Assembly: GCA_049323975.1 (NCBI GenBank)
Contig: JBMOMY010000036.1
Location: 1-34,321, forward strand
DNA from: Pseudomonadota bacterium
GTDB lineage: Bacteria; Pseudomonadota; Alphaproteobacteria; UBA11222
Reading direction: 5' to 3'
DNA length: 34,321 bases
The translations under genes were made by a program, and so were the position numbers. Of this stretch, positions 2,416 to 34,131 are shown in pieces. Position 1 is the stretch's first letter. Each line of letters opens with the position of its first letter. The notes below the pieces were generated by a model, which saw only the letters and a program-made list of their open reading frames with translations, made no database searches and was not told where the DNA came from.

Positions 2416-3171
2416 TCAGACCGTCGTATAGCCGCCATCGACGACGATCTCCGCGCCGGTGACATAGCTGGCCTCGTCGGAAGCAAGGAAAAGCACCGGA
2501 TAGGAAACCTCCCGCGGCTCGGCCGCGCGGCGCAAAATGGTTCCCGCCAGCAGCGCTTTGGTGGCCTCCTCGCTGGTCATCAGATCCTTGGTCATCGCCG
2601 TGCGGATCGCGCCGGGATGAATGGAGTTGCAGCGGATATTGTATTGCGCATATTCCACCGCGACCGATTTCGTCAGGAGGCGCACGGCGCCTTTCGCCGC
2701 CTGATAGGCGGAAGCCGCTGGCGCCCCGATAAGCCCGTAGATCGATGAAATGTTGATGATCGAGCCGCCAGACGCCTTGCGCATGGCGGGCAGGATATGT
2801 TTGCAGCCGTAGAACACGCCCTTGACGTTCACATCCATCATGCGGTCAAGCTCCGGCCCGGTGGTGTCCTCGATCATCTTCATGATCAGGATGCCGGCAT
2901 TGTTCACCAGAATGTCGACCCGCCCAAAGGTCGCCACGGCCTGCTCGACGGCGGCCTGCCAGGCGGCCTCGCTTGCGACGTCGAAATGAATGAACACGGC
3001 CTGGCCGCCCTTGCCGTTGATCATGGAAACGGTTTCACGCCCGCCCGCCTCGTTCACATCGGAAACGATGATGCTGGCGCCTTCCTCGGCCATCAGCAGC
3101 GCATGTTCGCGCCCCATGCCCGAGCCCCCGCCGGTGATGAAAGCAATCTTTCCCGCAACCCGTCCAGCCAT
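2416..3171 (-). CDS. SDR family oxidoreductase (copy 1), cyclic secondary-alcohol dehydrogenase-like
   Basis: Same SDR motifs; SSIYGLIGAPAASAYQAAKGAVRLLTK resembles CpnA/3alpha,20beta-HSD-type SDRs; 251 aa. Confidence 0.95.
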   Translation of the reverse strand: MAGRVAGKIAFITGGGSGMGREHALLMAEEGASIIVSDVNEAGGRETVSMINGKGGQAVFIHFDVASEAAWQAAVEQAVATFGRVDILVNNAGILIMKMIEDTTGPELDRMMDVNVKGVFYGCKHILPAMRKASGGSIINISSIYGLIGAPAASAYQAAKGAVRLLTKSVAVEYAQYNIRCNSIHPGAIRTAMTKDLMTSEEATKALLAGTILRRAAEPREVSYPVLFLASDEASYVTGAEIVVDGGYTTV

Positions 3172-3339
3172 TCCTGTCTCCCTGATTTTGATTTGTTTTA
3201 TAGCAGCTTATGCGCGGCTGGCCAGCATGTCCATGCTGTTGACGGCCTGATCAATAAAGGCCCGTTCACGCGCTTAGACCCATGGCGTTTCCAAGCCAAC
3301 TCGTATAATAGTTATGGGGTACGCAGCAGGAGGAAAAAC

Positions 3340-4143
3340 ATGCACGCATTATTTGAAAAACAGGGTCATGTCGGCATCATCACCATGAACCGGCCGGACG
3401 CCCTCAACGCCCTCAGCCCGGAAATGATCTGTCAGCTGGCGGATTACTGGAAAGAGGTGCGCGACAATCCCGATATTCGCGTCGCGGTGGTGACCGGGGC
3501 CGGACCGAAATCATTTTGCTCGGGGGCCGATCTGGGCCAGCTGATCCCGCTGTTCACCGGCGCCCGCACCCCGCAAAATGATTACGAAAAGCGGGTGGTG
3601 GCGGATCGCGGCCTTACCGGCATCGGCATTTTGCGGGATTTCGACACGGTGAAACCCGTCGTGGCGGCGGTCAACGGCTTCGCGGTGGCGGGCGGAACGG
3701 AAATGCTGCAGGGCACGGATATCCGGGTGGCTTCCGAAAAGGCCCGTTTCGGCCTGCAGGAGGTGAAATGGGCGATTTTCCCCGGCGGCGGCTCGACCGT
3801 GCGCCTGCCGCGCCAGATCCCCTATTGCCGCGCGATGGAGATTCTCATCACCGGCGATCTGATCAGCGCCCAGGAAGCCTATATGATCGGCCTGGTCAAC
3901 AAGGTGGTGCCCCAGGAAAAGGTTATGGACGCGGCCATGGAATACGCCGCGAAACTGGCCAAGAACGGACCTGTCGCCGTGCAGGCGATCCGCCGTTCGG
4001 CGCGGGAATGCATCGGCTATCCCGAAAAGGAGGCGCTGGAAATGGAAAGCAAGTTCGCCGCCCCCGTGCTGAAAACCGAGGATGCGGTGGAAGGCCCGCG
4101 CGCCTTCATGGAAAAGCGCGAGCCGGTGTTCAAGGGCCGTTAA
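3340..4143 (+). CDS. Enoyl-CoA hydratase/isomerase (crotonase family)
   Basis: True start is the ATG at 3340 after the RBS GGAGGA. Motifs: ITMNRPDALNAL, FCSGADL, AVNGFAVAGGTE, FGLQE, RAFMEKREPVFKG. Confidence 0.93.
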   Translation: MHALFEKQGHVGIITMNRPDALNALSPEMICQLADYWKEVRDNPDIRVAVVTGAGPKSFCSGADLGQLIPLFTGARTPQNDYEKRVVADRGLTGIGILRDFDTVKPVVAAVNGFAVAGGTEMLQGTDIRVASEKARFGLQEVKWAIFPGGGSTVRLPRQIPYCRAMEILITGDLISAQEAYMIGLVNKVVPQEKVMDAAMEYAAKLAKNGPVAVQAIRRSARECIGYPEKEALEMESKFAAPVLKTEDAVEGPRAFMEKREPVFKGR

Positions 4144-7728: not shown

Positions 7729-9732
7729 TCACGCCGCCTTGTCGCAGCCCTCGTCCACCAGTTGCACGATGTCCGCCATGATGGCGTTGAGCTGATAGTC
7801 CTTCGGCGTATAGACGCGGGCGACGCCGGCATGGCGCAGGCGGTCCGCGTCCTCGGGCGGGATGATGCCGCCGATGACCACCGGAATATCGCCGATGCCC
7901 GCCGCCCGCATGCGCGCCAGCACATCGAGGGCGAGCGGCACATGGCTGCCGGAAAGGATGGAGAGGCCCACCACATGCACGCCTTCCTCCAGCGCGGCGT
8001 TGACGATCTGCGCCGTGGTCAGGCGGATGCCTTCATAGACCACTTCCATGCCCGCGTCGCGGGCGCGCACGGCGATCTGTTCCGCGCCGTTGGAATGGCC
8101 GTCCAGCCCTGGCTTGCCCACCAGGATTTTCAGCCGCCGCCCGAGCTTTGCGGAGACATGGCCGACAGCGCGGCGCACCTCATCCAGATTGCCGCCGCCC
8201 CCGGGCGCCGCACGGCCGACGCCGGTGGGCGCGCGGTATTCGCCGAAGATTTCGCGCAGCGCCGCCCCCCATTCGCCGGTGGTGACGCCCGCCTTTGCGG
8301 CCGCGATCGAGGGCGGCATGATATTGACCCCGGATTTCGCCGCCTGACGCAGGTTTTCCAGCGCCGCCGCCGCAGCCTTTTCATCGCGCGCGGCGCGCCA
8401 GGCCTTGAGGCGTTCGACCGCCTCGGCCTCCACGGCTTCGTCCACCGTCATGATGCCCCCATCCCCGCCTTGGGCAAGTGGCGAGGGTTCGGTCTCGGTG
8501 AATTTGTTCACCCCCACCACGATATGCGCCCCCGCCTCGATGGCGGCGAGGCGCGCAGTGTTGGATTCCACCAGTTTCTGTTTCATGTAACTGGATTCCA
8601 CCGCCGCCACGCCGCCGCCCATGGCGTCGATGCGGGCCAGTTCCGCCAGCGCCTCGGCTTTCAGTTCCGCAACTTTCGCCGCGATCACATGGCTGCCGTC
8701 GAAAATATCGCCATATTCCAGCAGGTCGGTCTCATAGGCGACGATCTGCTGCAGGCGCAGGGACCATTGCTGATCCCAGGGGCGGGGAAGGCCCAGCGCC
8801 TCGTTCCACGCAGGCAACTGCACAGCGCGGGCGCGGGCGTCCTTGGAGAGCACCACCCCGAGCATTTCCAGCAATATTCTGTAGACGTTGTTTTCCGGCT
8901 GCGGCTCCGTCAGGCCGAGAGAGTTGACCTGCACCCCATAGCGGAAGCGGCGCAGTTTCGCATCCTGCACGCCGTAACGGGTGCGGGTGATCTCATCCCA
9001 TAATTCGCCGAAGGCGCGCATCTTGCACATTTCGGTGATGAAGCGCACCCCGGCGTTGACGAAGAAGCTGATGCGCCCGACGACATCGGGAAAATCCTGT
9101 TCCGGCACCTGGCCGCCCGCCTTCACCGCGTCCAGAATGGCGATGGCGTTGGCCAGCGCGAAGGCAAGCTCCTGTACGGGGGTCGCGCCCGCTTCCTGCA
9201 GATGATAGGAACACACATTGACAGGGTTCCATTTCGGAAGCTCGCGATAGGTATAGGCGATCATGTCCGAGGTCAGGCGCAGGCTGACGTCGGGCGGGAA
9301 GATATAGGTGCCGCGCGACAGATATTCCTTGATCAGATCGTTCTGCGTGGTGCCGGCAAGGGAGGCGCGCGCCGCCCCCTGTTCCTCCGCCGCGGCGATG
9401 TAAAGCGCCAGCAGCCAGGGGGCGGTTGCGTTGATCGTCATGGACGTATTCATACGCGCAAGCGGAATGCCGTCGAACAGGGTGCGCATGTCGCCCAGAT
9501 GCGCCACCGGCACTCCCACTTTGCCCACTTCGCCCCGGGAAAGCGGATGGTCCGCGTCATAGCCGGTCTGGGTCGGCAGGTCGAACGCCACCGACAGGCC
9601 GGTCTGGCCCTTGGCCAGATTGCTGCGGTAAAGCGCATTGGAGGCTTGGGCGGTGGAGTGGCCCGCATACGTGCGTAAAATCCAAGGAGCGTCTCTTTCC
9701 GGCGCGACGCCCGGCTGCCTGGTTTGGGTCAT
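7729..9732 (-). CDS. ecm: Ethylmalonyl-CoA mutase (MeaA), B12-dependent
   Basis: PWILRTYAGHSTA, SVAFDLPTQTGY, B12-binding KPGLDGHSNGAEQIA; divergent from ccr. Confidence 0.95.
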   Translation of the reverse strand: MTQTRQPGVAPERDAPWILRTYAGHSTAQASNALYRSNLAKGQTGLSVAFDLPTQTGYDADHPLSRGEVGKVGVPVAHLGDMRTLFDGIPLARMNTSMTINATAPWLLALYIAAAEEQGAARASLAGTTQNDLIKEYLSRGTYIFPPDVSLRLTSDMIAYTYRELPKWNPVNVCSYHLQEAGATPVQELAFALANAIAILDAVKAGGQVPEQDFPDVVGRISFFVNAGVRFITEMCKMRAFGELWDEITRTRYGVQDAKLRRFRYGVQVNSLGLTEPQPENNVYRILLEMLGVVLSKDARARAVQLPAWNEALGLPRPWDQQWSLRLQQIVAYETDLLEYGDIFDGSHVIAAKVAELKAEALAELARIDAMGGGVAAVESSYMKQKLVESNTARLAAIEAGAHIVVGVNKFTETEPSPLAQGGDGGIMTVDEAVEAEAVERLKAWRAARDEKAAAAALENLRQAAKSGVNIMPPSIAAAKAGVTTGEWGAALREIFGEYRAPTGVGRAAPGGGGNLDEVRRAVGHVSAKLGRRLKILVGKPGLDGHSNGAEQIAVRARDAGMEVVYEGIRLTTAQIVNAALEEGVHVVGLSILSGSHVPLALDVLARMRAAGIGDIPVVIGGIIPPEDADRLRHAGVARVYTPKDYQLNAIMADIVQLVDEGCDKAA

Positions 9733-9783
9733 GGGTTATTCCATTGCGGGAAAACAGGTATTTTCATATAGGTAGCATATTCA

Positions 9784-9799
9784 TTGTTGCGGTGCAAAA
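9784..9799. promoter_or_regulatory. Candidate PhaR/AniA-type operator in the ecm-ccr intergenic region
   Basis: ttgttgcggtgcaaaa contains the TGC-N3-GCA core of alphaproteobacterial PhaR sites. Confidence 0.4.
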
Positions 9800-9877
9800 T
9801 CCGCTTGAATTAACCGCAACGAAAGCGTTTTATCGCAGTCTATGACTTAAATTTAGGCAAACAACCGGAGCCCTTAC

Positions 9878-11152
9878 ATGTCCGCCAGCCAGGCAAAGAT
9901 ACAGGAACTCAAGGATCTCTATGAAATTGGCGAGATCCCCCCGATCGGCCATGTGCCAAAGAACATGTATGCCTGGGCGATCCGGCGCGACCGGCAGGGC
10001 CCGCCGGAACAGGCGATGCAGCTCGAAGTCGTCGAGACGCCCAAGCTCGACAGCAATGAAGTGCTGGTGCTGGTGATGGCGGCTGGCGTCAACTATAATG
10101 GCGTCTGGGCCGCGCTGGGCACCCCGGTCTCGGTCTTCGACGTACATGATCAGCCCTATCACATCGCCGGTTCCGACGCTTCCGGCATCGTTTACGCCGT
10201 GGGATCGAAAGTCACCCGCTGCAAGGTCGGGGACGAGGTTGTTGTGCACTGCAACCAGACCGATGGCGACGACGAGGAATGCAATGGCGGCGACCCCATG
10301 TTCTCCAACAGCCAGCGCATCTGGGGCTATGAGACGCCGGACGGCTCCTTCGCCCAGTTCTGCCGGGTGCAGGCGCAGCAGATCATGCCGCGCCCCAGGC
10401 ATCTGACCTGGGAGGAAAGCGCCTGCTACACCCTGACGCTGGCCACCACCTACCGCATGCTGTTCGGCCACAAGCCGCATATTCTCAGCCCCGGCGACAA
10501 TGTTCTGGTATGGGGGGCGAGCGGCGGACTCGGTTCTTTCGCGGTGCAGCTCTGCGCCACTTCCGGCGCGAACGCCATTGGCGTCGTCTCCGATGAAAGC
10601 AAGCGCGATTTCGTGATGTCCCTGGGCGCCAAGGGCGTGATCATCCGCAACGATTTCAACTGCTGGGGCCAGTTGCCCCAGGTCAACGGGCCGGGTTTTG
10701 CCGAATACATGACCGAGGTGCGTAAATTCGGCAAGGCCATCTGGGATATCACCGGCAAGGGAGTGGATGTGGACTTCGTGTTCGAGCATCCGGGAGAGGC
10801 GACCTTCCCCGTTTCCTGCATGGTCTGCAAGCGCGGCGGCATGGTGGTGTTCTGCGCGGGCACGACCGGCTATAACCTGACCTTCGACGCCCGCTTCGTG
10901 TGGATGCGGCAGAAGCGCATCCAGGGCAGCCATTTCGCCAATCTCATGCAGGCCAGCCAGGCCAACCGGCTGGTGATCGACCGCCGCATCGACCCCTGCA
11001 TGTCGGAGGTGTTCCCCTTCCATGACATCCCAAGGGCGCATACCAAGATGTGGAAGAACGAACACGCGCCTGGCAATATGGCGGTGATGGTCTGCGCCAA
11101 GCGGCCCGGCCTGCGCACTGTCGAAGACACCATAGAGGCAGGACTGGAATAG
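9878..11152 (+). CDS. ccr: Crotonyl-CoA carboxylase/reductase
   Basis: KDLYEIGEIPPIGHVPK, VMAAGVNYNGVWA, IWGYETPDGSFAQF, WMRQKRIQGSHFAN. Confidence 0.97.
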   Translation: MSASQAKIQELKDLYEIGEIPPIGHVPKNMYAWAIRRDRQGPPEQAMQLEVVETPKLDSNEVLVLVMAAGVNYNGVWAALGTPVSVFDVHDQPYHIAGSDASGIVYAVGSKVTRCKVGDEVVVHCNQTDGDDEECNGGDPMFSNSQRIWGYETPDGSFAQFCRVQAQQIMPRPRHLTWEESACYTLTLATTYRMLFGHKPHILSPGDNVLVWGASGGLGSFAVQLCATSGANAIGVVSDESKRDFVMSLGAKGVIIRNDFNCWGQLPQVNGPGFAEYMTEVRKFGKAIWDITGKGVDVDFVFEHPGEATFPVSCMVCKRGGMVVFCAGTTGYNLTFDARFVWMRQKRIQGSHFANLMQASQANRLVIDRRIDPCMSEVFPFHDIPRAHTKMWKNEHAPGNMAVMVCAKRPGLRTVEDTIEAGLE

Positions 11153-14006: not shown

Positions 14007-15203
14007 ATGAGCGCCCCGATGGAAATTTTCTTCTTTCACCTCATGCCCTGGCCGCAGATCCCGGAAAACGTCACACAGAAATACGGCTCTTCCTGGGTCG
14101 TGCTGCCCAACAGTTATTACGAGCCGCAACTCGGCCATGAACTGTACAACCAGTATCTGGACCAGCTCGAATATGCGGACCAGCTTGGATTCGACGCGCT
14201 CTGCGTGAACGAGCACCATCAGAACGGCTATGGGCTGATGCCTTCGCCGAACATCATGGCGGCCACGCTGGCGCGCCGCACCAAAAACGCCAAGATCGCC
14301 ATTCTCGGCAATGGCGTCAATCTGCGGGAAAATCCCCTGCGGGTGGCCGAGGAGGTGGCCATGCTGGACGTGATTTCAGGCGGGCGGATCCTGTCCGGCT
14401 TCGTGCGCGGCATCGGCGCTGAATATTATTCGCTCAATCTCGATCCGTCCCAGTCCCGCAGCCGTTTCCACGAGGCCCATGACCTGATCATCAAGGCGTG
14501 GACGGAACCTGGCCCTTTCGAATGGGATGGAGAGCATTTCCGCTTCCGCTATGTGAATGTCTGGCCGCGGGTGTTTCAGAAGCCCCATCCGCCGATCTTT
14601 TCGCCTTCTCAGGGATCGTCTGAAACCATCCGCTGGGCGGCGCAGCATGGCTATCCCTATATCTGCACCTATGCGCCCATCGACCAGCTTGTGCATTACT
14701 ACACCCTGTACCGCCAGATCGCTGCGGAGGAATACGGCTACGCCGCCGGGCCGGAAAAATTCGGATGGACCTCTATGGTTTACGTGGCGAAGGATGAAAA
14801 GACCGCCGTCGAGGAGGCGCGCGCCCATATCGAATATTTCAACAAGCGCTGTTTCGCCCTGCCTCCGCAAATGCTGGTGCCGCCGGGATATACCAGCCCC
14901 GATTCCTTCCGGAACATGGTGCAGGCGCGGATGGCGCGCCCCACACAGTTCGATTATGACGAGATGATCGCCACGGGCCAGGCGCTGATCGGCACGCCGG
15001 AACAGGTGGGAGAACGGCTGCTGCGCAATATGGAGCGCGCCGGCACGGGCATCTTCATGGGGGCGTTCCAGGTGGGCGACATGCCCCATGCCAAGGTGAT
15101 GAAGAATCTGGAGCTGTTCGCCAAGGAAGTTCTGCCGCACCTGCCGCGCACCAAACATGATTACCGGGCGAAACCCCCGCTTCCAGCCAGGGCGGCGGGC
15201 TGA
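14007..15203 (+). CDS. LLM-class (luciferase-like) flavin-dependent monooxygenase
   Basis: ADQLGFD...NEHHQ...PSP, PLRVAEEVAMLDVISGGR, QKPHPPI, ELFAKEVLP. Confidence 0.92.
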   Translation: MSAPMEIFFFHLMPWPQIPENVTQKYGSSWVVLPNSYYEPQLGHELYNQYLDQLEYADQLGFDALCVNEHHQNGYGLMPSPNIMAATLARRTKNAKIAILGNGVNLRENPLRVAEEVAMLDVISGGRILSGFVRGIGAEYYSLNLDPSQSRSRFHEAHDLIIKAWTEPGPFEWDGEHFRFRYVNVWPRVFQKPHPPIFSPSQGSSETIRWAAQHGYPYICTYAPIDQLVHYYTLYRQIAAEEYGYAAGPEKFGWTSMVYVAKDEKTAVEEARAHIEYFNKRCFALPPQMLVPPGYTSPDSFRNMVQARMARPTQFDYDEMIATGQALIGTPEQVGERLLRNMERAGTGIFMGAFQVGDMPHAKVMKNLELFAKEVLPHLPRTKHDYRAKPPLPARAAG

Positions 15204-21147: not shown

Positions 21148-22206
21148 CTATTCTCCCGCCCTGGGAGGATGCGGCGCGTGTTGCGTATCATCCAATTGGG
21201 TTGTCAGCCGCAGGGTAAGCTGCGCCAGCCCCTGTTCCGCCTGCAGACGGTTTTCCGCATCCATCACCCAGCCAGCCCCTTCCGGCGCCATGTTTTCGAT
21301 CTGCTTCACTTCCGCCACGGCGGCGTAGAGATCGCCTTCTTCCAGCCGGGTTTGCGCGCGCGCGGCGCGTTCCGGCACGCCGTCGCCGTCGCGCTCCCCC
21401 AGGGGGCGGACCAGGACCAGGGACTGAAGAAAAGCATAGGCCTTTCCGGCCCATCCGGTTGCGGCCTGGGCCGCATCGGCGCGCACCAGCGCCGCCGCCA
21501 CCCCATCGAATCGCGCCGTCAGTTCCGCGCGGCTGGGAACGCCCATGCTGGCCAAGGGACGCAGTTCCGCGATCACCGGATCGTCCGGCGCCAGCAGTTT
21601 GGCGAGGCTTTCCAGCTGCATCCGGAAGGGCCTGGAGTGGATGAGGGCGCGGTCCAGCTCCCGCAAGGCCAGCGCATAGGCCACACGCCTTTCCGCCTCC
21701 GAATTTCTTTCGGATTGCGCCGTTTCCAGCGCGGTCAGCCGGTCCGATAGCGCGCGGATCTCGCCATTGATCCTATCCATACTGGCGAAAATATCCAGCA
21801 GATGCTGATCCGGCTGACCGGGGGAGGCTTCCTGCGCTTCTGTGGGCGGCGGGGCTGCTTCCGGGGCTGCCGGCTTTTCGCTTAGCGCCGTTTTCAGCCG
21901 GGCGATTTCCTCCTGCATGGCCGCCATCTGGGCGCCGGACTCCGCCAGATCCTTCCGCAGCGCGTCGAGCGCCGTATCGGAGGGCGGCTGGATCGCAAGT
22001 GTAGATGCCGCCCGCGGCTGGGGAGGTTGCGGGAGAGGCGCAAGCGGGCGCAGATCGCGGAGCGCAAAAAAGGCCGCCCCGGCCCCCAGCAGGGCGGCGC
22101 CCAAAACCACCCAGCGCAGCCGCGGCCACAGCAGGGCCAGACGCTCCCGGATCGTCGCGCCGCCTTTTTCCGGCGGCGTCTGTTCAATCACTTCTGGCAA
22201 ATGCAC
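21148..22206 (-). CDS. COG4223 / mitofilin (Mic60)-like membrane protein
   Basis: N-terminal TM, coiled coil, then RPFRMQL...GVPSRAELTARF...SLVLVRP...AARAQTRLEEGDLYAAVAE...W; lies between hemD and hemY. Start is probably GTG 22206 or TTG 22200. Confidence 0.8.
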   Translation of the reverse strand: MHLPEVIEQTPPEKGGATIRERLALLWPRLRWVVLGAALLGAGAAFFALRDLRPLAPLPQPPQPRAASTLAIQPPSDTALDALRKDLAESGAQMAAMQEEIARLKTALSEKPAAPEAAPPPTEAQEASPGQPDQHLLDIFASMDRINGEIRALSDRLTALETAQSERNSEAERRVAYALALRELDRALIHSRPFRMQLESLAKLLAPDDPVIAELRPLASMGVPSRAELTARFDGVAAALVRADAAQAATGWAGKAYAFLQSLVLVRPLGERDGDGVPERAARAQTRLEEGDLYAAVAEVKQIENMAPEGAGWVMDAENRLQAEQGLAQLTLRLTTQLDDTQHAPHPPRAGE

Positions 22207-22214
22207 CCCACCTC

Positions 22215-22919
22215 TCAGGACGTCAGCAATTCGAGCATCGCCATCTGCGACGGCGCAGCGGCGACCTTGATGTGTTTCCAGGGCAGCCGGTCCGCCACCT
22301 CCGCCACCGCCTCGCTGAGGCATAGCGCCCTGATCTGGCGGCAGGCTTCCGTCAAGGCGTTTTCGATGACCAGATCGGAGAAAATCTGCGCTGAGCGGGG
22401 AGAATAGAACAGCGCCCCCTCGATGTCATGATTACGCATATGGGCGATGGTCTGCGGATCGAGACCCGTGGCGGGTTCGGATTCGTAAAGGCGCACGCGG
22501 AACACGCTGAAGCCGTCATCCTGCAGCAGATCCTTCAGCTCCCGCGCCACTACCGTGCCCGATATATGCATGAGGATTCCCTCCGCCGGCTTGAGAGCGC
22601 CCGCCACCAGTTTTGCAAGGGAGCCGACATCGCCCCCCGCCGCATGCACGCGGCGGAAACCGAGATCCCGCGCGACCGCCGCGCTCGCTTCGCCGACCGT
22701 ATAGACCGGGGTGCGGCGGTTCAGGGAAACATCCGCGAAGGCGCGCACCCCATTGGCGCTGCTGAACAGCAGGGCCTGCACCCCTTCCGTATCCAGTTGC
22801 ACATTGTCGAACGGCCGGATGCGCAGCATGGAGTCGATAGCGACGTCATGACCAAGGGCGCGCATCGTCTGCGCCAGGGTTTCGGCGTCCTCTTCCGGCC
22901 GGGTGATCAAATAGCGCAT
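22215..22919 (-). CDS. hemD: Uroporphyrinogen-III synthase
   Basis: LITRPEED, FSSANGVRA, VGEASA, FYSPRSA; follows hemC. Confidence 0.93.
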   Translation of the reverse strand: MRYLITRPEEDAETLAQTMRALGHDVAIDSMLRIRPFDNVQLDTEGVQALLFSSANGVRAFADVSLNRRTPVYTVGEASAAVARDLGFRRVHAAGGDVGSLAKLVAGALKPAEGILMHISGTVVARELKDLLQDDGFSVFRVRLYESEPATGLDPQTIAHMRNHDIEGALFYSPRSAQIFSDLVIENALTEACRQIRALCLSEAVAEVADRLPWKHIKVAAAPSQMAMLELLTS

Positions 22920-26496: not shown

Positions 26497-26716
26497 GATA
26501 TAATCTGCTAGCCTAAAAAACATCTGACCTGGGCGTTTCGCTTAGGGCTTATTATCAGAGTGAACGGGGGAAAACCTTCGTTAAAGATAGGATTGAGGCG
26601 ATAGGCGATGGTCAGCTTCTTGGATGTGGGAAGCGGCAATCGGGTAACAGAGTTAATACGCATTCCAGAAATACACCGTTGTTCGAAATAAACTGATTGA
26701 ACAAAAGGAGTTGGAC

Positions 26717-27358
26717 ATGATTAAAAATTTAATGATTGGGGCCGCCGCACTGACTTTTTCCCTGGGTTTTTCGGGAACAGGTACGACAGGCGCCGCGCAT
26801 GCAAGCCTTCTGGTCGCCAATGGCGTTCTGGATCCCTGCGCGGAGGTGCTTTCACCTCCGGGCGGAGCGGGTTCTGGACCGGCATGCGGCGTATCGACGG
26901 AGTCGGGGACCTTCAATATCTCCTACGATACGATCACGAAACTGCTGACGATCGCCTTTGAATATACCGGGTTGTCCGATGCTTTTACGACCTGGCACAT
27001 TCACGGACCTGCCGATGCAGACAGTGTGGCTGGCGCCATGCTTGAAGGGCCGGTCGTTTTCCCGTTGGCGGATGAAGACGGCACGCCCTCTGCGGCGGAT
27101 GAAAATCCGTTTCATGCAAGCATCACCATGAGCGATGTACTGCTTGGCGCTTTCGGCGAAACGCTTGCCTCTTTCGAAGCGGCGCTGAAGGCCGATCTGC
27201 TTTATCTGAACATCCATTCAGCGCTGCCGGACGGGTTCCCCCTGGGTGAATTGCGCGGCCAGCTGCTGTTCGTCGACGTGCCCGAACCCGCCAGCATGAC
27301 CCTTCTGGGCGCCGGAATTATGGGTCTGGGCTATATGGCCCGCCGCCGCAAGGCCTGA
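26717..27358 (+). CDS. CHRD-domain PEP-CTERM exported protein
   Basis: Signal peptide; CHRD motifs YTGLS...WHIHGPA and LYLNIHS...FPLGELRGQL; VPEPASMTLLGAGIMGLGYMARRRKA; AAGGAG RBS. Confidence 0.92.
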   Translation: MIKNLMIGAAALTFSLGFSGTGTTGAAHASLLVANGVLDPCAEVLSPPGGAGSGPACGVSTESGTFNISYDTITKLLTIAFEYTGLSDAFTTWHIHGPADADSVAGAMLEGPVVFPLADEDGTPSAADENPFHASITMSDVLLGAFGETLASFEAALKADLLYLNIHSALPDGFPLGELRGQLLFVDVPEPASMTLLGAGIMGLGYMARRRKA

Positions 27359-27492: not shown

Positions 27493-29793
27493 CTATTCTT
27501 TCGCCATCTGCAGCGCGCGCCACATGGCGAAAGGGGTAAGAGGCATGTCGAGATGGGTGATGCCCAGATGCGCCACCGCATCCAGCACCGCGTTCATCAG
27601 CGCGGGCGGCGCGCCGGTCGCCCCGGCTTCGCCGCAGCCCTTGACCCCCATCTCGTTGGTGGCGCAGGGGGAATTGCAGGTCTCGACGGCAAAGCCCGGC
27701 ATATCGGCGGCGCGCGGCATCCAGTAATCGAGGAAGGAGCCGCTCAGCAATTGCCCGCTGTGCGGATCATAGACCGCGTGCTCCCCCAGCGCCTGACCCA
27801 GCCCCTGCACGATGCCGCCATGCACCTGCCCCTCGACGATCATCGGGTTCAGCACACGGCCGAAATCATCCACCGCCGTATAGTTCAGCACCCGGATGAC
27901 TCCGGTTTCCGGATCGATCTCCACCTCGCAGATATGGCAGCCATTGGGAAATTGAAATGGCGTATTGTGATATTCCGCATTGGCTGTAAGCCCTTCCGGG
28001 CCAGCCGCCTTTGCCGCATCCCCAAGGGTGATGGTCCGGTCCGTGCCCACGATCCGGAATATGCCGCCCTCATATTCGATGTCGGCGCTGGCGGCCTCCA
28101 GCTCGTTTGCGGCGGCAAGTTTGGCCCTGGCGATCACTTCCACCGCAGCGGCGCGCGCCGCGCTGCTCCCCATCAGTCCTGAGCCCGAGCCCCCGGAAAG
28201 TCCGCCCGCCGGCAATTCATTGCTGTCGCCGCTGCTGACGCGGATTCGCTCGAACGGCACGCCAAGGGCGTCGGCGGCGATCTGGGCGTAAACCGTTTCA
28301 TGCCCCATGCCGTTGGACTGATTGCCCATGAACACCGATACCGCGCCGTCAGGCAAAAGGGTGACTTTCGCGGTCTCCATGGGCGGACCGCCAGATTTCT
28401 CCACATAAAAGGCCATGCCGATTCCAGAGAGCTTGCCTGCCGCCCTGCGGCCTTTCTGGCGCGCCGTGAACCCGTCCCAATCGGCCAGACGCTGCGCCTC
28501 GCGCATGACGCGGTGGAAATCGCCGCTGTCATAGACATAACCGCCAGCGGTGGCATAGGGCATCTGATCCGGACGGATGAAATTGCGCGCGCGCAACTCG
28601 TCAGGCGCGATGCCCATTTCGCGGGCCGCCGCATCCACCAGCCGCTCGATCAGATAGGCGGCTTCGGGCCGCCCCGCGCCCCGATAGGCGTCGGTTGGCA
28701 CCGTATTGGTGAAGACGGGTTTCGCATTCAGATACATGGCGGGAATGGCGTAGACCCCCACCTGCAGACCGCCCGCGCCGGTGGTGAACATGCCCGGCCC
28801 CATGATCGAGGCATAGGCCCCCACATTGCCCGTGATCTGCGCCCGAAGCGCCAGCATCCGACCGTCCCCGTCCAGCGCCAGCTCCGCATCGCAGATCTGG
28901 TCGCGGCCCTGATGATCGCTGAGGAAACTCTCACTGCGTCCCGCCGTCCATTTCACCGGCCGGCCGATCTTCTTCGCGGCCCAGATGGCGGTGACCTGTT
29001 CAGGGTAGATGAACGCCTTCATGCCGAAACTGCCGCCCACATCATAGGTCCGCACCCGCATGGATTCGGGCGGAAGATGAAACACCGCCCCGGCCACGAG
29101 ACCACGCCAGCGGAACACCCCCTGTGTCGCGGTATGCACCGTATAATGATCCGTCCCGGGATCATATTCGGCGATCACCATGCGCGGCTCCATGGAGTTG
29201 GCGACCACACGGTTGTTGATGAGATGCAGCCGGGTCACATGGCGCGCGCGGGCAAAGCCTGCATCCGTGGCCTTCCTGTCACCCAGTTCCCAGTCCACCA
29301 CCAGATTGCCGGGGGCTTCCGGCCAGATTTGCGGCGCATCCGGCAGCAGGGCCAAAGCGGCGTCCGTGACGCAGGGCAATTCTTCATATTCGACCGCCAC
29401 CAGATCCGCCGCGTCACTGGCCTCCCGCCAGCTTTCCGCCAGCACCACCGCCAGAGGATCGCCTACATGGCGCACGATTTCCGGGCACAGCGCCAGGCGG
29501 AACGGGGTGATATTCCCCCGGCCGTCACGCCCCGTCAGACTGGCGATGCAGGGCATGCCGCCCAGACCGCTCTCCGCCATATCCCTGCCGGTAAGGATCG
29601 CCACCACGCCGGGCGCGGCCTTTGCTTCGTCCAGATCCAGGGCCGCGATGCGCGCATGGGCATAAGGCGAACGGACAAAGGCCGCATAGACCTGTCCCGG
29701 CGCATTCACATCATCGCCATAACGCCCCTGTCCAGTGATGAAACGCGCGTCTTCCTTGCGGCGGTAGGCCTGTCCGGTTGCAAATACTCCCAT
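27493..29793 (-). CDS. Xanthine dehydrogenase family molybdopterin-binding subunit (form II CoxL-like)
   Basis: RRKEDARFITGQGRY, VRSPYAHA, VGGSFGMK, active-site AYRGAGR, EGQVHGG, KGCGEAG. Confidence 0.93.
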   Translation of the reverse strand: MGVFATGQAYRRKEDARFITGQGRYGDDVNAPGQVYAAFVRSPYAHARIAALDLDEAKAAPGVVAILTGRDMAESGLGGMPCIASLTGRDGRGNITPFRLALCPEIVRHVGDPLAVVLAESWREASDAADLVAVEYEELPCVTDAALALLPDAPQIWPEAPGNLVVDWELGDRKATDAGFARARHVTRLHLINNRVVANSMEPRMVIAEYDPGTDHYTVHTATQGVFRWRGLVAGAVFHLPPESMRVRTYDVGGSFGMKAFIYPEQVTAIWAAKKIGRPVKWTAGRSESFLSDHQGRDQICDAELALDGDGRMLALRAQITGNVGAYASIMGPGMFTTGAGGLQVGVYAIPAMYLNAKPVFTNTVPTDAYRGAGRPEAAYLIERLVDAAAREMGIAPDELRARNFIRPDQMPYATAGGYVYDSGDFHRVMREAQRLADWDGFTARQKGRRAAGKLSGIGMAFYVEKSGGPPMETAKVTLLPDGAVSVFMGNQSNGMGHETVYAQIAADALGVPFERIRVSSGDSNELPAGGLSGGSGSGLMGSSAARAAAVEVIARAKLAAANELEAASADIEYEGGIFRIVGTDRTITLGDAAKAAGPEGLTANAEYHNTPFQFPNGCHICEVEIDPETGVIRVLNYTAVDDFGRVLNPMIVEGQVHGGIVQGLGQALGEHAVYDPHSGQLLSGSFLDYWMPRAADMPGFAVETCNSPCATNEMGVKGCGEAGATGAPPALMNAVLDAVAHLGITHLDMPLTPFAMWRALQMAKE

Positions 29794-29812
29794 GGCGCTC
29801 TTTCCTGCTGGT

Positions 29813-30739
29813 CTATCCGTTCATTGCATCGATTTCTGGCAGCACTTCATCGATCAGCAGTTTCGTCTGCGCCAGCATTTCATCGCCATTGGCGGCAACC
29901 GGCCGCAGGATGAATTTATGGGCGCCTGCTGCGATGAATTCACGCAATCGCGCGAGAATGTCTTCCGCGCCGCCCACTGCATAATAACCGCGGGGGTCGT
30001 CCTTGACCCGTTTCGACAGGGCTTCGAGATTACGCGCCACCGGCGCATCATCCCAGCGGCCAAAACGGAACGCAAAGCCCGCCCCGTAATGATCGGCGTC
30101 TATGGTTCTTCCGGATTCAAGCAGCGCCTGTTTGACGCCTTCGATCACCGGCGCGATCTGCGCAGGGGTCTCGATCCCCGCCTGCCAGCCCGTGCCATAC
30201 AGCGCCGTACGGCGGATCGCGCCTTCAGCCGATCCTCCAACCCACAGGGGAATGTCGCTCTGCACCGGGCGCGGGGAAATGGAGACATCTTTATACTGAA
30301 AGAACTCCCCTTCAAAACTGACGCTTTCCTCACGCCAGAGCCGGGAGATCAGCAACAGGCACTCATCGGTGCGCACGCCGCGCCGCCGGGTGGGGCGGCC
30401 CGTCGCCGCCCATTCCGGCCCAAAGGCGCTGCCGACGCCGAACGCCGGAAGAAGCCGGCCATTGCTCAGCACATCGATGGTGGCGCATTGCTTGGCCAGC
30501 AGAAGCGGGTCGCGCAGACCGGCGGAAGCGACATTCATGCCGAATTTGAGGCGCCGGGTCGCACCGGCCAGGGCCGCCATCACGCTCATGCATTCCAGAT
30601 GCGGGTCTTTGGAGACGATGCGGTCGGACTGCCAGATGGAATCGACGCCGCTGTCCTCGCATAGATCCACCCAGCGCCAGAACGCCTCCGCATCACGAAA
30701 TGGAAAATTTGCAATGCCCAATCCCACGCCATAGGTCAT
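29813..30739 (-). CDS. LLM-class flavin (possibly F420)-dependent oxidoreductase
   Basis: GVDSIWQSDR, LECMSVMAALAGATRRLKFG, LAKQCATIDVLSNGR, PLWVGG. Confidence 0.9.
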   Translation of the reverse strand: MTYGVGLGIANFPFRDAEAFWRWVDLCEDSGVDSIWQSDRIVSKDPHLECMSVMAALAGATRRLKFGMNVASAGLRDPLLLAKQCATIDVLSNGRLLPAFGVGSAFGPEWAATGRPTRRRGVRTDECLLLISRLWREESVSFEGEFFQYKDVSISPRPVQSDIPLWVGGSAEGAIRRTALYGTGWQAGIETPAQIAPVIEGVKQALLESGRTIDADHYGAGFAFRFGRWDDAPVARNLEALSKRVKDDPRGYYAVGGAEDILARLREFIAAGAHKFILRPVAANGDEMLAQTKLLIDEVLPEIDAMNG

Positions 30740-30823
30740 ACGGTCTGTTCCCTGACTCTTCTCTCAAAGCCCTTTTTCAGCCTACCACATTCCGCGGCAA
30801 GCTCCAGGCCTGAAGAAGAAACG

Positions 30824-31441
30824 TTACGCCGTAAGACTGGTGGCGGGAATTTTCAGTACGCTTTCAATGAGATGTCGCAGAAAACCGTCCATATCCCGGG
30901 CGGCCTGATGGGCGAAATGCATCAGCACCACCATATGCGCATCCCCAACAATGATGCGCGCCGCATCGCGCGGATCGACATCCGCGGGGATCTGGCCCTG
31001 CCTTTGGCCGCGAACGATCAGATCCTGCAGACGGTTCACCACCTTTTCCTGAAAGACAAGGTATTTCGGCCAGATGTCGTCACGCACGGATGTGCTCCAC
31101 TCCAGCCAGACCCGCACCATATCCGTATGGGTTTCGGTGGCGTCGGCAAAAGCGCGCATGAGATTATAGAGCGCCTGGGGCGCCGTCACATTCTTCTGGT
31201 CGAGATTCTCCAGAAGGGCGGTCAGATTTTTGGCCACTTCCTCCAGTATCTGCAGGACCAGGATTTCACGGGTAGGGAAATAGTTGAACACGGTGGCCAC
31301 GGAAACCCCGGCTTCCCGGGCAATTTCCGCATGGCTGGCGCGGCCTATCCCGAGGCGCGCAAAAACCTGAATGCCATAATCCATTAATTGCGCCCGACGG
31401 TCTTCTGGCTGCATCCGCCTGCGGGGTGATGCGATATTCAT
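30824..31441 (-). CDS. TetR-family regulator of the Vibrio LuxR/HapR/SmcR type
   Basis: VFARLGIGRASHAEIA..AGVSVATVFNYFPTRE and VWLEWSTSVRDDIWP; 205 aa from MNIAS (alternative start at 31486). Confidence 0.85.
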   Translation of the reverse strand: MNIASPRRRMQPEDRRAQLMDYGIQVFARLGIGRASHAEIAREAGVSVATVFNYFPTREILVLQILEEVAKNLTALLENLDQKNVTAPQALYNLMRAFADATETHTDMVRVWLEWSTSVRDDIWPKYLVFQEKVVNRLQDLIVRGQRQGQIPADVDPRDAARIIVGDAHMVVLMHFAHQAARDMDGFLRHLIESVLKIPATSLTA

Positions 31442-31513
31442 GGACAGGTCATTAATGCATTTAACCGGCTTTGTCCAATCTATCATAAGAAATTCGCGCG
31501 CGTCTCTGACGCC

Positions 31514-31561
31514 TGCCTCAAGAATGTGCGGGAGAAAGGCAAACTGCCCCCAAAACCAGCA
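31514..31561. promoter_or_regulatory. Tandem NtrC-like enhancer sites
   Basis: tgcctcaagaatgtgcg (31514-31530) and tgcccccaaaaccagca (31545-31561) resemble TGC-N11-GCA; 31 bp apart, upstream of the sigma54 site. Confidence 0.55.
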
Positions 31562-31622
31562 CCGTGTCGATCCCCCTGTAAACTAACCCGCGTTAAAATC
31601 AGCCTTTTCCTGAATTTAAGGA

Positions 31623-31638
31623 TTGGCCTGATTGTTGC
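31623..31638 (+). promoter_or_regulatory. Sigma54 (-24/-12) promoter of nirBD
   Basis: TTGGCctgattgTTGC, GG-N10-GC. Confidence 0.8.
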
Positions 31639-31695
31639 GTTCCCTTCTCAGAGCAGACGTTGTTTCAGGAAATAAGGGATAAAGGGTAAACGGCA

Positions 31696-34131
31696 ATGAA
31701 GCCAAAACTGGTGGTTATCGGCAACGGAATGGCCGGTATGCGAGCGGTCGAGGAACTTCTTGAACGCGCGCCGGACGCCTATGACATTACCGTATTCGGC
31801 GCCGAGCCGAATGTGAATTACAACCGCATCATGCTCTCGCCGCTTCTGGCGGGGGAAAAGAGCTTTGCGGACATCATCATCAACGATCTTTCCTGGTATG
31901 CGGATAACCATATCACGCTGCATCTCGGCGAGAAGATCGAGGCCATCGACTGCGCCGGCAAGAAGGTGGTCACGGCTGGCGGCGCCAAACTTCCCTATGA
32001 CCGGTTGCTGATCGCCACCGGCTCCGACCCGTTCATTCTGCCTATCCCGGGGGCCGGTCTGCCCGGCGTGGTGACCTTCCGTGACAGGGGCGATGTTGAA
32101 CAGATGCTGGAGGCAAGCCGCCGGCATAAACGCGCCGTGGTCATTGGCGGCGGGCTGCTGGGGCTGGAAGCCGCGAACGGGCTTCTGGCGAACGGCATGC
32201 AGGTCACTGTCCTGCATCTGATGCCCAATCTGATGGAGCGTCAGCTCGATGAAGCCGCGGGCTATCTGCTGCAACGCGAACTGGAGGTTCGCGGGATGGA
32301 GATCATCACCCGCGCCAACAGCCGGGAAATCTATGGCGCCGATAAGGCCGAAGGCGTCCTGCTGGATGACGGAAGGCGCATCGACGCCGATCTCGTGGTG
32401 ATGGCGGTAGGCATCAAGCCGAATATCGCCCTGGCGAAGGCTGCGGGGCTGACCTGTGAACGCGGCGTCGTCGTGGATGACCACATGGTTACGTCGGATC
32501 CTTCGATCCTGGCCGTGGGCGAATGCGTGCAGCACAGGGGCGCGGTCTATGGCCTGGTCGCGCCGCTGTTCGATATGGCGAAAGTGGTCGCCGCCCAGCT
32601 TGCCGACGACGCGGCGGCGGCCTATGAGGGTTCGGTCACCAATACGCGGCTGAAAGTAACAGGTATCGATCTGTTTTCCGCAGGCGATTTTTCCGAAGGC
32701 GAAGGCTGCGAGGACATCATCCTGCGCGACGCCAGCCGCGGGGTCTATAAACGCCTGGTGCTGAAAGACAACCGCATCCGCGGCGCCGTGCTGTATGGCG
32801 ATACTGGAGATGGCGGCTGGTATTTCCAGATGCTGCGCGACGGCGTGGATGTTTCCGGCATGCGCGACAGCCTGATCTTCGGACAGGCCTTCGCCGGAGG
32901 TGGCCGGGAAAACCCTAAATCCGCCGTTGCGGCGCTGGCGGATTCTGCGGAAATCTGCGGCTGTAACGGCGTGTGCAAAGGCAGGATCGTAACCGCGATT
33001 TCGGAACACGGTCTTACCAGCGTCGATGAGGTGCGGGCCAAGACCAAGGCGTCGGCTTCTTGCGGCTCCTGCACCGGACTTGTGGAGCAGCTGCTGCAAA
33101 TCACCCTGGGTGACGGTTATCTGGGCGGGCCGGCGGTCAAGTCCGTGTGCAAATGCACGGATCTCTCCCATGACGAAATACGCCGCCTGATCCTGGTCAG
33201 GGAGCTGAAAACCATTCCCGCCGTCATGCAGGAACTGCAATGGAAATCCGCTGATGGTTGCGCCACCTGCCGTCCGGCCCTGAATTATTATCTGCTGTGC
33301 GAATGGCCTGGCGAGTATTGCGATGATTATCAGTCGCGTTTCATCAATGAGCGCGCCCACGCCAATATCCAGAAGGACGGCACCTATTCCGTGGTGCCCC
33401 GCATGTGGGGCGGCCTTACCAACGCCAGGGAACTGCGGGCGATCGCGGATGTGGTGGAGAAATTCGCCATCCCCACGGTGAAGGTGACCGGCGGCCAGAG
33501 ACTGGATCTGCTGGGCGTCCAAAAAGACCAGTTGCCGGAAGTCTGGAAAGACCTGAACGCTGCGGGCCTTGTTTCCGGCCATGCCTATGGCAAGGCGCTG
33601 CGCACGGTGAAAACCTGTGTCGGTTCCGAATGGTGCCGTTTCGGCACCCAGGCTTCCATGGGCATGGGCGTGGAGATCGAAAAAATGACCTGGGGAAGCT
33701 GGACCCCCCACAAGGTGAAAATGGCGGTGTCCGGCTGCCCGCGCAACTGCGCCGAGGCGACGATCAAGGATTTCGGCGTCGTGGCCGTGGATTCCGGCTG
33801 GGAACTCCATGTAGGCGGTAATGGCGGCATCAAGGTCCGCGCCACCGATCTTCTCTGCAAGGTGGAAACCGCGGAGGAGGTGCTGGAATATTGCGGCGCC
33901 TTCATGCAGCTTTACCGCCAGGAAGCCCATTATCTTGAGCGCACCGCGCCCTGGCTGGAGCGCGTGGGTCTTGACCATATCCGGGAAAAAATCGTCGAGG
34001 ACAAGGAGAACCGCGCCAGGCTTCACGCCAGATTTCTGCATTCCCAGAAGTTTGTGCAGAAGGACCCGTGGGCCGAACGCGCCAGCGAAGGCGTGCACGC
34101 CCATGAATATCGCCAGCTTGAAATGGCGTGA
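31696..34131 (+). CDS. nirB: Assimilatory NADH-dependent nitrite reductase, large subunit
   Basis: VIGNGMAG FAD motif, GGGLLGLEAA, BFD-like CGCNGV...CGSC, siroheme/4Fe-4S motifs KTCVGSEWCRFG and VSGCPRNCAE. Confidence 0.97.
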   Translation: MKPKLVVIGNGMAGMRAVEELLERAPDAYDITVFGAEPNVNYNRIMLSPLLAGEKSFADIIINDLSWYADNHITLHLGEKIEAIDCAGKKVVTAGGAKLPYDRLLIATGSDPFILPIPGAGLPGVVTFRDRGDVEQMLEASRRHKRAVVIGGGLLGLEAANGLLANGMQVTVLHLMPNLMERQLDEAAGYLLQRELEVRGMEIITRANSREIYGADKAEGVLLDDGRRIDADLVVMAVGIKPNIALAKAAGLTCERGVVVDDHMVTSDPSILAVGECVQHRGAVYGLVAPLFDMAKVVAAQLADDAAAAYEGSVTNTRLKVTGIDLFSAGDFSEGEGCEDIILRDASRGVYKRLVLKDNRIRGAVLYGDTGDGGWYFQMLRDGVDVSGMRDSLIFGQAFAGGGRENPKSAVAALADSAEICGCNGVCKGRIVTAISEHGLTSVDEVRAKTKASASCGSCTGLVEQLLQITLGDGYLGGPAVKSVCKCTDLSHDEIRRLILVRELKTIPAVMQELQWKSADGCATCRPALNYYLLCEWPGEYCDDYQSRFINERAHANIQKDGTYSVVPRMWGGLTNARELRAIADVVEKFAIPTVKVTGGQRLDLLGVQKDQLPEVWKDLNAAGLVSGHAYGKALRTVKTCVGSEWCRFGTQASMGMGVEIEKMTWGSWTPHKVKMAVSGCPRNCAEATIKDFGVVAVDSGWELHVGGNGGIKVRATDLLCKVETAEEVLEYCGAFMQLYRQEAHYLERTAPWLERVGLDHIREKIVEDKENRARLHARFLHSQKFVQKDPWAERASEGVHAHEYRQLEMA

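Follow-up and report, generated by a model that had tools for sequence, protein, structure and literature searches.

Gene content of the locus

The window (the whole stretch of alphaproteobacterial DNA analyzed here, 34,321 nt) carries towards one end a gene for a TetR-type regulator, which is followed in the same orientation by two enzyme genes and faced on its other side by nirB:

27493..29793, minus strand: molybdopterin-binding large subunit of the xanthine/CO/aldehyde dehydrogenase type (Pfam and NCBIfam matches, below equivalog cutoffs)
29813..30739, minus strand: luciferase-like (LLM) oxidoreductase (Pfam Bac_luciferase, E 2.8e-43)
30824..31441, minus strand: HapR-like TetR regulator, probable CDS, 205 aa plus stop
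31696..34131, plus strand: nirB, divergent neighbor (NCBIfam TIGR02374, 973 bits)

The open frame of the regulator extends upstream to 31486, giving an ORF of 220 aa (30824..31486, minus strand). Its start is likely the ATG at 31441 (M16): in an alignment of 25 rows that comprises the closest relatives, the first 15 residues have no counterpart in 22 of the 24 other rows, and the conservation of the upstream DNA among nine related loci reaches as far as the equivalent ATG. The 205 aa obtained in this way equal the length of the Vibrio representative (P0217); an earlier note on this DNA had given a length similar to that of Vibrio LuxR and SmcR. The gene is intact and has all the residues that are invariant in the 25-row alignment.

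The same note had described a co-oriented unit of LLM and molybdoenzyme genes headed by the regulator. The order holds (TetR, 84-nt gap, LLM, 19-nt gap, molybdoenzyme), and no terminator was found between the regulator and LLM genes. The LLM gene lies directly downstream of the regulator in eight of the nine related loci with downstream DNA, L005 being the exception, and is the conserved partner of the regulator gene. Identities between loci reach 83–91% for LLM and 80–85% for NirB, and 59–68% for the regulator. Two of the loci (L004 and L013) belong to the same MAG, possibly as a single locus, and L008 ends inside the regulator gene. The molybdoenzyme was discarded as a conserved partner, since its gene follows the LLM gene only in the window and in L007 (two of the nine loci that extend downstream, counting the window). 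It has no gene for a FeS or FAD subunit beside it.

In the relatives, nirB and the regulator gene are 0.65–2.5 kb apart, with a 2.4-kb oxygenase operon between them. This divergent diiron-oxygenase operon is complete in six of nine relatives, where a spacer carrying LuxR-type boxes (see below) separates it from the regulator gene, and its products are a diiron protein of 419 aa that carries ExxH motifs, a 168-aa protein without a known family and a 4Fe-4S ferredoxin. Only fragments of it remain in L005 and L008, and in L007 it is cut by the contig end. The diiron protein matches no Pfam family; a weak R2-like match, a VlmB homologue at E 0.024 and AurF-carrying clusters retrieved by a feature search could make it an AurF/VlmB-like enzyme, which we treat as a lead only. 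A tblastn search found the relatives' oxygenase operon nowhere in the window, and it is because of this absence that the regulator gene there faces nirB across just 254 nt. Judged by the comparison with these loci, the window has lost the divergent operon together with its two boxes. A related state is seen in L005, where the boxes remain and both enzyme partners are missing, and where the regulator has therefore outlived its presumed targets.

More distant HapR-like genes have other neighborhoods. Linkage to hpt defines the LuxR/HapR master regulator family, and a divergent phosphoribosyltransferase gene adjoins the HapR-like genes of Photobacterium, Enterovibrio, and Aeromonadaceae. The window gene, in contrast to those of LuxR/HapR, is neither hpt-linked nor stand-alone, its neighbors being nirB and LLM and its setting a presumed enzyme operon. 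In Oceanospirillaceae the gene is found on its own, flanked by carAB and dapB, whereas those of the window's clade sit beside oxidoreductase genes. In the clades of L011 and L018, the HapR-like gene is accompanied by LLM, flavin monooxygenase (FMO), and desaturase genes, so that an LLM gene is found near a HapR-like gene in three separate clades.

Affiliation of the regulator

The helix-turn-helix (HTH) of the protein matches Pfam TetR_N (PF00440) with 35.3 bits against a cutoff of 24, which places it among the TetR regulators; the only other Pfam match is a borderline one to TetR_C_24. Much more specific is the NCBIfam model for LuxR/HapR/OpaR (NF040929), matched with 123.5 bits (E 9.1e-36) over profile positions 6–193 of 200, ahead of ScbR and BetI (49 bits each) and of the FadR (41 bits) and FasR (36 bits) models. 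However, the equivalog cutoff of NF040929 is 350 bits, well above the score of the window protein. Among 83 matches to PDB sequences, the top 18 are all OpaR, HapR, SmcR, or LuxR (E 1.4e-40 to 1.2e-28), and the next one is a RamR variant at E 4.1e-8.

The earlier note had seen similarity to LuxR/HapR/SmcR beyond the HTH, and this was borne out when the C-domain was searched alone (145 aa, HTH removed). All 18 PDB matches at E≤0.01 belong to the LuxR/HapR family (E 1.1e-14 to 4.4e-5), and the HapR model is the sole NCBIfam match, significant at E 3.9e-10. The HTH string and the C-domain motif that had been quoted are both present in the sequence, and the SmcR motif given for comparison agrees with the PDB SmcR alignment. 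The segments of the regulator referred to here and below are the following:

31412..31426, minus strand: N-terminal arm PRRRM, with the equivalents of LuxR Arg9 and Arg11 (alignment, codons read)
31250..31381, minus strand: TetR_N/HTH segment (Pfam TetR_N, E 9.7e-9)
31067..31111, minus strand: C-domain signature VWLEWSTSVRDDIWP, in SmcR VWFEWSASTRDEVWP (codons read, PDB alignments, C-domain-only searches)
31022..31033, minus strand: R152-L-Q-D155, at the positions of LuxR L139 and N142 (alignment)

An AlphaFold2 model built on 60 homologues (pLDDT 94.1, pTM 0.87) leads to the same family. In a Foldseek search, all 24 of the matches listed at ranks 1–41 are LuxR/HapR proteins (TMq 0.74–0.87), the best being 8zf3 (TMq 0.87, rmsd 1.5); the Photobacterium profundum and P. 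marinum regulators come first (TMq 0.87 and 0.86), followed by LuxR, SmcR, and HapR. The first folds outside the family are FadR of Bacillus and FasR of Mycobacterium (TMq 0.71–0.76), acyl-CoA sensors that act as ligand-gated local repressors of the TetR type, although their sequence similarity to the window protein is weak and they do not have the LuxR-type Arg arm.

Overall, the window protein shares with LuxR/HapR/SmcR/OpaR (NF040929; PDB 8zf3, 3kz9, 2pbx, 7amn) the TetR fold, an equal length, its best sequence and structure matches and the C-domain signature VW.EWS.S.RD..WP, but it is only 30–39% identical to them. By sequence and predicted structure, its kinship with the master regulators of Vibrio quorum sensing is real, though distant. 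The LuxR/HapR assignment is right in the broad sense, but the protein is not an equivalog.

Extent of the HapR-like family and phylogeny

A search of 1.84 billion cluster representatives (clusters at 50% identity) matched 7002 of them at E≤0.001, 291 at ≤1e-10, and 59 at ≤1e-30, with scores that fall off smoothly from a best match of 46% identity. Among the 150 best representatives, the HapR model is the sole NCBIfam match at E≤1e-18 in 122, the other 28 having none at that threshold, and a single one passes the NF040929 cutoff. This is P0217 (398.6 bits), which comes about 99th in the list at 35% identity. The closest proteins elsewhere are 87 and 84% identical to the window regulator. Among the members with a name are proteins of Thalassolituus, Bacterioplanes, Venatoribacter, Oleispira, Panacagrimonas, Aliagarivorans, an Aeromonadaceae MAG, and alphaproteobacterial MAGs; the HapR-like TetRs of Oceanospirillaceae (Thalassolituus, Bacterioplanes, Oleispira), Aliagarivorans, and Panacagrimonas are the nearest named proteins (38–47% identity). 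These searches place the window protein in a large subfamily of HapR-like TetRs, of which the regulators of Vibrionaceae form just one branch. The earlier note had given such regulators as characteristic of Vibrionaceae quorum sensing; in the databases the family extends beyond Vibrionaceae, with 59 clusters at E≤1e-30 and members in Oceanospirillaceae, Aliagarivorans, Panacagrimonas, and Aeromonadaceae. The name "hemagglutinin/protease transcriptional regulator" is already given to many of the HapR-like members by one source. A literature search judged by titles and the first part of abstracts, outside subscription journals, found nothing on HapR-like regulators beyond Vibrionaceae.

A quick IQ-TREE phylogeny was built from 104 rows (99 ingroup and five outgroup), comprising the window protein, 19 close relatives, 12 ingroup and five outgroup proteins translated from loci and 67 representatives, the latter drawn from 148 new ones (the first 58 of the 115 sized 185–245 aa, supplemented manually with nine more). 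A branch with support 97 sets the 99 ingroup rows apart from the five outgroup rows, actinobacterial TetRs that have only the recognition helix in common with them, and the window protein does not branch with these generic TetRs. It falls in a clade of eight alphaproteobacterial rows (support 99). All Vibrionaceae rows fall into an 11-row clade (support 100), which is embedded in rows from Aeromonadaceae, Aliagarivorans, and Oceanospirillaceae (supports 88–94). The free tree places the window's clade apart from that of the Vibrionaceae with weak support (80–82), and forcing both together, a group named after the tree had been seen, lowers lnL by only 2.06 and is not rejected by the AU test (p-AU 0.468). 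The "non-Vibrio branch" of the earlier note thus stands as membership of a broad family and falls as an equivalog (123.5 against 350 bits), and the alphaproteobacterial clade may be sister to the Vibrionaceae clade or may branch elsewhere.

Conserved and changed residues

Residues were mapped on an alignment of the window protein with P0217 and 16 others. The DNA contacts given for LuxR are R9 and R11 of the arm, which reach into the minor groove, together with R17, R32, R36, S49, T52, Y56, P58, T59, and R60 (PMC8034623); A51 and N55 are added from the HTH residues described in PMC3705450. Twelve of these 13 positions are identical between the window protein and P0217, both arm arginines among them, and the sole change is R32 to L.

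A very different picture emerges from the ligand pocket. Fourteen SmcR residues are described as contacting the inhibitor QStatin (PMC5790914), and only three are identical in the window protein (L79, W114, and A163); the polar or aromatic residues N133, Q137, H167, and C170 are replaced by Q, V, V, and A. The same pattern (Y, Q, F, A) recurs in the non-Vibrio members, the window protein and its Thalassolituus homologue (L012) having the same residue at eight of the 14 positions. A 2026 paper (PMC12977469) states that LuxR/HapR proteins have no known native ligand, in agreement with the earlier note.

Changes are also found at positions linked to activation. The L139/N142 region of LuxR is proposed in PMC3705450 to touch RNA polymerase, and the V. 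harveyi mutants L139R and N142D are reported there as partially defective in activation. The window protein natively has R152 and D155 at these positions, i.e., the very same changes. Because R and D are activation-defective substitutions there, these two residues suggest that the window protein represses without LuxR-like activation.

Operators in relatives and candidate sites in the window

The LuxR motif reported for Vibrio alginolyticus is TTATTGATAAATTTATCAATAA (PMC8034623), the core of which is TATTGA-N8-TCAATA; the 22-bp operator bound by the LuxR/HapR master regulators is TTATTGATA-N4-TATCAATAA. All nine alphaproteobacterial loci with upstream DNA (L001–L009) have a site with at most two mismatches to this core. 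The first box lies about 100–135 nt before the regulator ATG and is perfect in four of the nine loci, and in six a second box starts 23 bp further on. In total, 17 core sites were counted in the 99,191 bases of the relatives' loci against 2.14 expected (maximum of six in 100 shuffles), and 16 of them are located in the spacer upstream of the regulator gene. Core and spacing equal those of the published LuxR motif. A perfect box was also found in an independent clade (L018), between the FMO gene and the HapR-like gene, and, by sequence, the operator specificity appears to be common to the HapR-like family.

These two strong boxes are absent from the window, where the sites and elements of interest are the following:

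31435..31454, no strand assigned: LuxR-box-core-like site with two mismatches, candidate autoregulatory operator, overlapping the probable start codon
31469..31488, minus strand: conserved promoter-proximal element (10-row alignment), the "dyad" of the earlier note
3237..3256, no strand assigned: best core match in the window (one mismatch), predicted as a candidate distant operator, 27 kb away

Four sites with at most two mismatches to the core occur in the window against 0.52 expected, a number reached by none of 200 shuffles. The site at 3237..3256 is in the divergent spacer between an SDR gene (2416–3171, minus strand) and an enoyl-CoA hydratase gene (3340–4143, plus strand), and it is the only one at one mismatch or fewer (0.025 expected, reached by five of 200 shuffles). 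The remaining two core sites are inside the HD-domain and catalase genes. This excess could point to a wider regulon.

The earlier note had seen a weak LuxR-like dyad at 31469–31488. As a LuxR box it was ruled out, since only eight of its 20 positions are self-complementary and the TetR-nirB spacer agrees with the LuxR 22-mer from the literature at no more than 12 of 22 positions, which is at chance level (reached by 276 of 500 shuffles). The stretch is nonetheless conserved in nine related loci, where it reads ...GATAGATCGACA, with a −35-like TCGACA; the complement of the latter, TGTCGAT, is similar to the second box of the relatives in its left arm. Compared with the relatives, the copy in the window is more degenerate. 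The element may combine a −35-like sequence with a half-site. A search of 29700–31750 for a sigma-70-like promoter gave none. The LuxR/HapR master regulators are controlled by LuxO/Qrr small RNAs and govern hundreds of genes; an Rfam scan of the 34-kb window returned no Qrr, only a tRNA, so that no sign of such sRNA control was seen within it.

Function of the regulator

The window regulator is, in our judgment, probably a local, ligand-gated repressor of the HapR-like subfamily with a LuxR-type DNA-reading head. We infer a dimeric TetR-fold protein that would bind LuxR-box-type palindromes with the core TATTGA-N8-TCAATA, because this head is retained, and that a small molecule would release from DNA. 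In the relatives, two such boxes are found upstream of the regulator-LLM unit, presumably co-transcribed, at the place where the divergent operon of diiron oxygenase, 168-aa protein, and ferredoxin also starts, and the regulator would shut off both. What is left of this arrangement in the window is the regulator gene, the promoter-proximal element, the weak box at the start codon, LLM and, here, the molybdoenzyme downstream. Divergent operon, palindromic operators, and co-oriented enzyme gene make the relatives similar to classical TetR local repressors, and the local role that the earlier note had proposed fits the gene context.

Several observations weigh against this reading of a local repressor. 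The window itself lacks the divergent operon and both strong boxes, and near the gene there are only the two-mismatch box and the degenerate conserved element, with no sigma-70-like promoter found in 29700–31750. The regulator (59–68% identity) is far less conserved than LLM and NirB (80–91%), and L005 keeps its boxes without the enzyme partners. The excess box-like sites include two inside unrelated genes and one 27 kb away.

Part of this evidence would also be accounted for by an orphaned regulator, one that has lost its main operators and target operon and is now drifting or has been rewired, e.g., to the acyl-CoA-type genes around 3237–3256. The missing operon and boxes, the similar erosion in L005 and L008 and the faster evolution of the regulator compared to its neighbors are all in line with such a fate; the rewired version gains from the best box of the window lying between the SDR and enoyl-CoA hydratase genes and from the acyl-CoA sensors being the nearest folds outside the family. 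However, the gene is intact with all its family-invariant residues, the proteins 87 and 84% identical elsewhere argue for purifying selection in the sub-clade, and the LLM partner has been retained, while a single one-mismatch site also turns up in five of 200 shuffles and the similarity of the spacer to a relative's box may be a coincidence. On balance we hold this explanation to be rather unlikely. It is very unlikely, in our opinion, that the protein does the work of the Vibrio master regulators in an alphaproteobacterium, activating and repressing genes globally under the control of cell density. The DNA head and Arg arm are the same, the HapR model outscores every other family by far (123.5 bits, the runner-up having 49), the score is on par with the 121 bits of both the hpt-linked Aeromonadaceae homologue and the Thalassolituus homologue, and box-like sites are in excess across the window, with one in a distant divergent promoter region. 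Nevertheless, the score is below the equivalog cutoff of 350, the gene is not hpt-adjacent as those of Vibrionaceae and Aeromonadaceae are, the activation-linked residues are natively the mutant forms R and D, three of 14 pocket residues are kept, no Qrr was detected by Rfam within the 34-kb window, and the paired palindromes in the divergent spacer of the relatives are the layout of a local repressor.

The 254-nt spacer that the regulator gene shares with nirB in the window could also make the nitrite-reductase genes nirBD its target, an option to which we give hardly any weight. In the relatives the two genes are 0.65–2.5 kb apart, with the three-gene operon between them in six loci and its remnants in L005 and L008, and their adjacency in the window is therefore best seen as a by-product of the deletion; besides, no site with at most two mismatches is nearer to nirB than 31435–31454.

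Implications for the origin of the Vibrio master regulators

The earlier note had hoped that the neighboring enzymes could point to the ancestral ligand of the family. This expectation is weakened by the three of 14 SmcR inhibitor-pocket residues kept, which make it a long step to carry a ligand over from the alphaproteobacterial clade to Vibrio LuxR/HapR. The full version of the idea would be that LuxR and HapR descend from ligand-gated repressors of oxygenase operons, and that the effector of the alphaproteobacterial clade is a substrate or product of the AurF-like diiron oxygenase and LLM enzymes and reveals the class of the native ligand; we deem it quite improbable. If this descent were true, the operator specificity and the Arg arm would predate the Vibrionaceae, and an identified effector would reveal the chemical class of the native LuxR/HapR ligand. 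A ligand found for the window's clade may not transfer to Vibrio, because only three of the 14 pocket residues are common with SmcR.

The locus and its relatives indicate that the HapR-like family is much wider than the Vibrionaceae, with the LuxR-type DNA head and the operator core apparently common to it. They also add, beyond the stand-alone genes of Gammaproteobacteria, what looks like the classic layout of a ligand-gated repressor beside oxygenase and oxidoreductase genes. The window locus thus hints at how the Vibrio regulators arose, and would offer a testable route to the origin of these master regulators and to the kind of molecule bound by the ancestral pocket.

Gene surroundings of the HapR-like regulators

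In six related alphaproteobacterial loci that carry a homologue of the regulator gene, we found a conserved operon running divergently from it.

L001 5833-7931: divergent operon opposite the regulator gene, conserved also in L002, L003, L004, L006, and L009

Its products in all six are a 419-aa diiron protein, a 168-aa protein, and a 4Fe-4S ferredoxin. The 419-aa protein contains ExxH motifs and matched no Pfam family, and no family was assigned to the 168-aa protein either; an AurF/VlmB-like N-oxygenase is suggested for the former as a lead only. This operon is missing from the window and is eroded in two further relatives (L005 and L008).

LuxR-box-like palindromes (core TATTGA-N8-TCAATA) were found both in the window and in a locus from another HapR-like clade (L018).

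Window 3237-3256: 20-bp palindrome with one mismatch to the LuxR-box core, in the spacer of divergent SDR and enoyl-CoA hydratase genes
L018 6097-6116: LuxR-box core without mismatches, TATTGATAATAATGTCAATA, with an FMO gene on one side and a HapR-like TetR gene on the other

By manual count, the window palindrome and the second box of the related locus L002 are identical at 16 of 20 positions. The L018 cluster further contains two additional TetR genes, a luciferase-like oxidoreductase/monooxygenase (LLM), a fatty-acid desaturase, and a hydroxylase. The L011 protein belongs to the clade sister to that of the window, on a contig labelled by binning as uncultured Mycobacterium sp., and its gene adjoins BVMO, LLM, and MMPL genes.

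Other genes of the window

Neither a 2Fe-2S nor a FAD subunit gene lies beside the molybdopterin large-subunit gene (27493-29793), which is followed by a convergent gene for a CHRD/PEP-CTERM protein (26711-27358). In the related locus L007, the same molybdoenzyme gene precedes fdhD and a formate-dehydrogenase-type gene on the opposite strand. Four more regions deserve mention.

154-1222: PIN-domain gene (701-1222) overlapping the end of a 186-aa ORF
7729-11152: fused methylmalonyl-CoA-mutase-type gene with B12 domain, and divergent 424-aa zinc-ADH-type gene
14007-15203: second luciferase-like monooxygenase gene (398 aa), adjoining alpha/beta hydrolase and TauD-type dioxygenase genes
21148-22323: gene matching the Mitofilin domain, flanked by hemY-like and hemD/hemC genes

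The PIN-domain gene and the 186-aa ORF, which had no family match, may form a toxin-antitoxin pair. By size and domains, the mutase-type and ADH-type pair resembles, and may encode, ethylmalonyl-CoA mutase and crotonyl-CoA carboxylase/reductase. A Mitofilin-domain gene between hemY-like and hemD/hemC genes is an arrangement typical of Alphaproteobacteria, in keeping with how the nearest MAGs are labelled.
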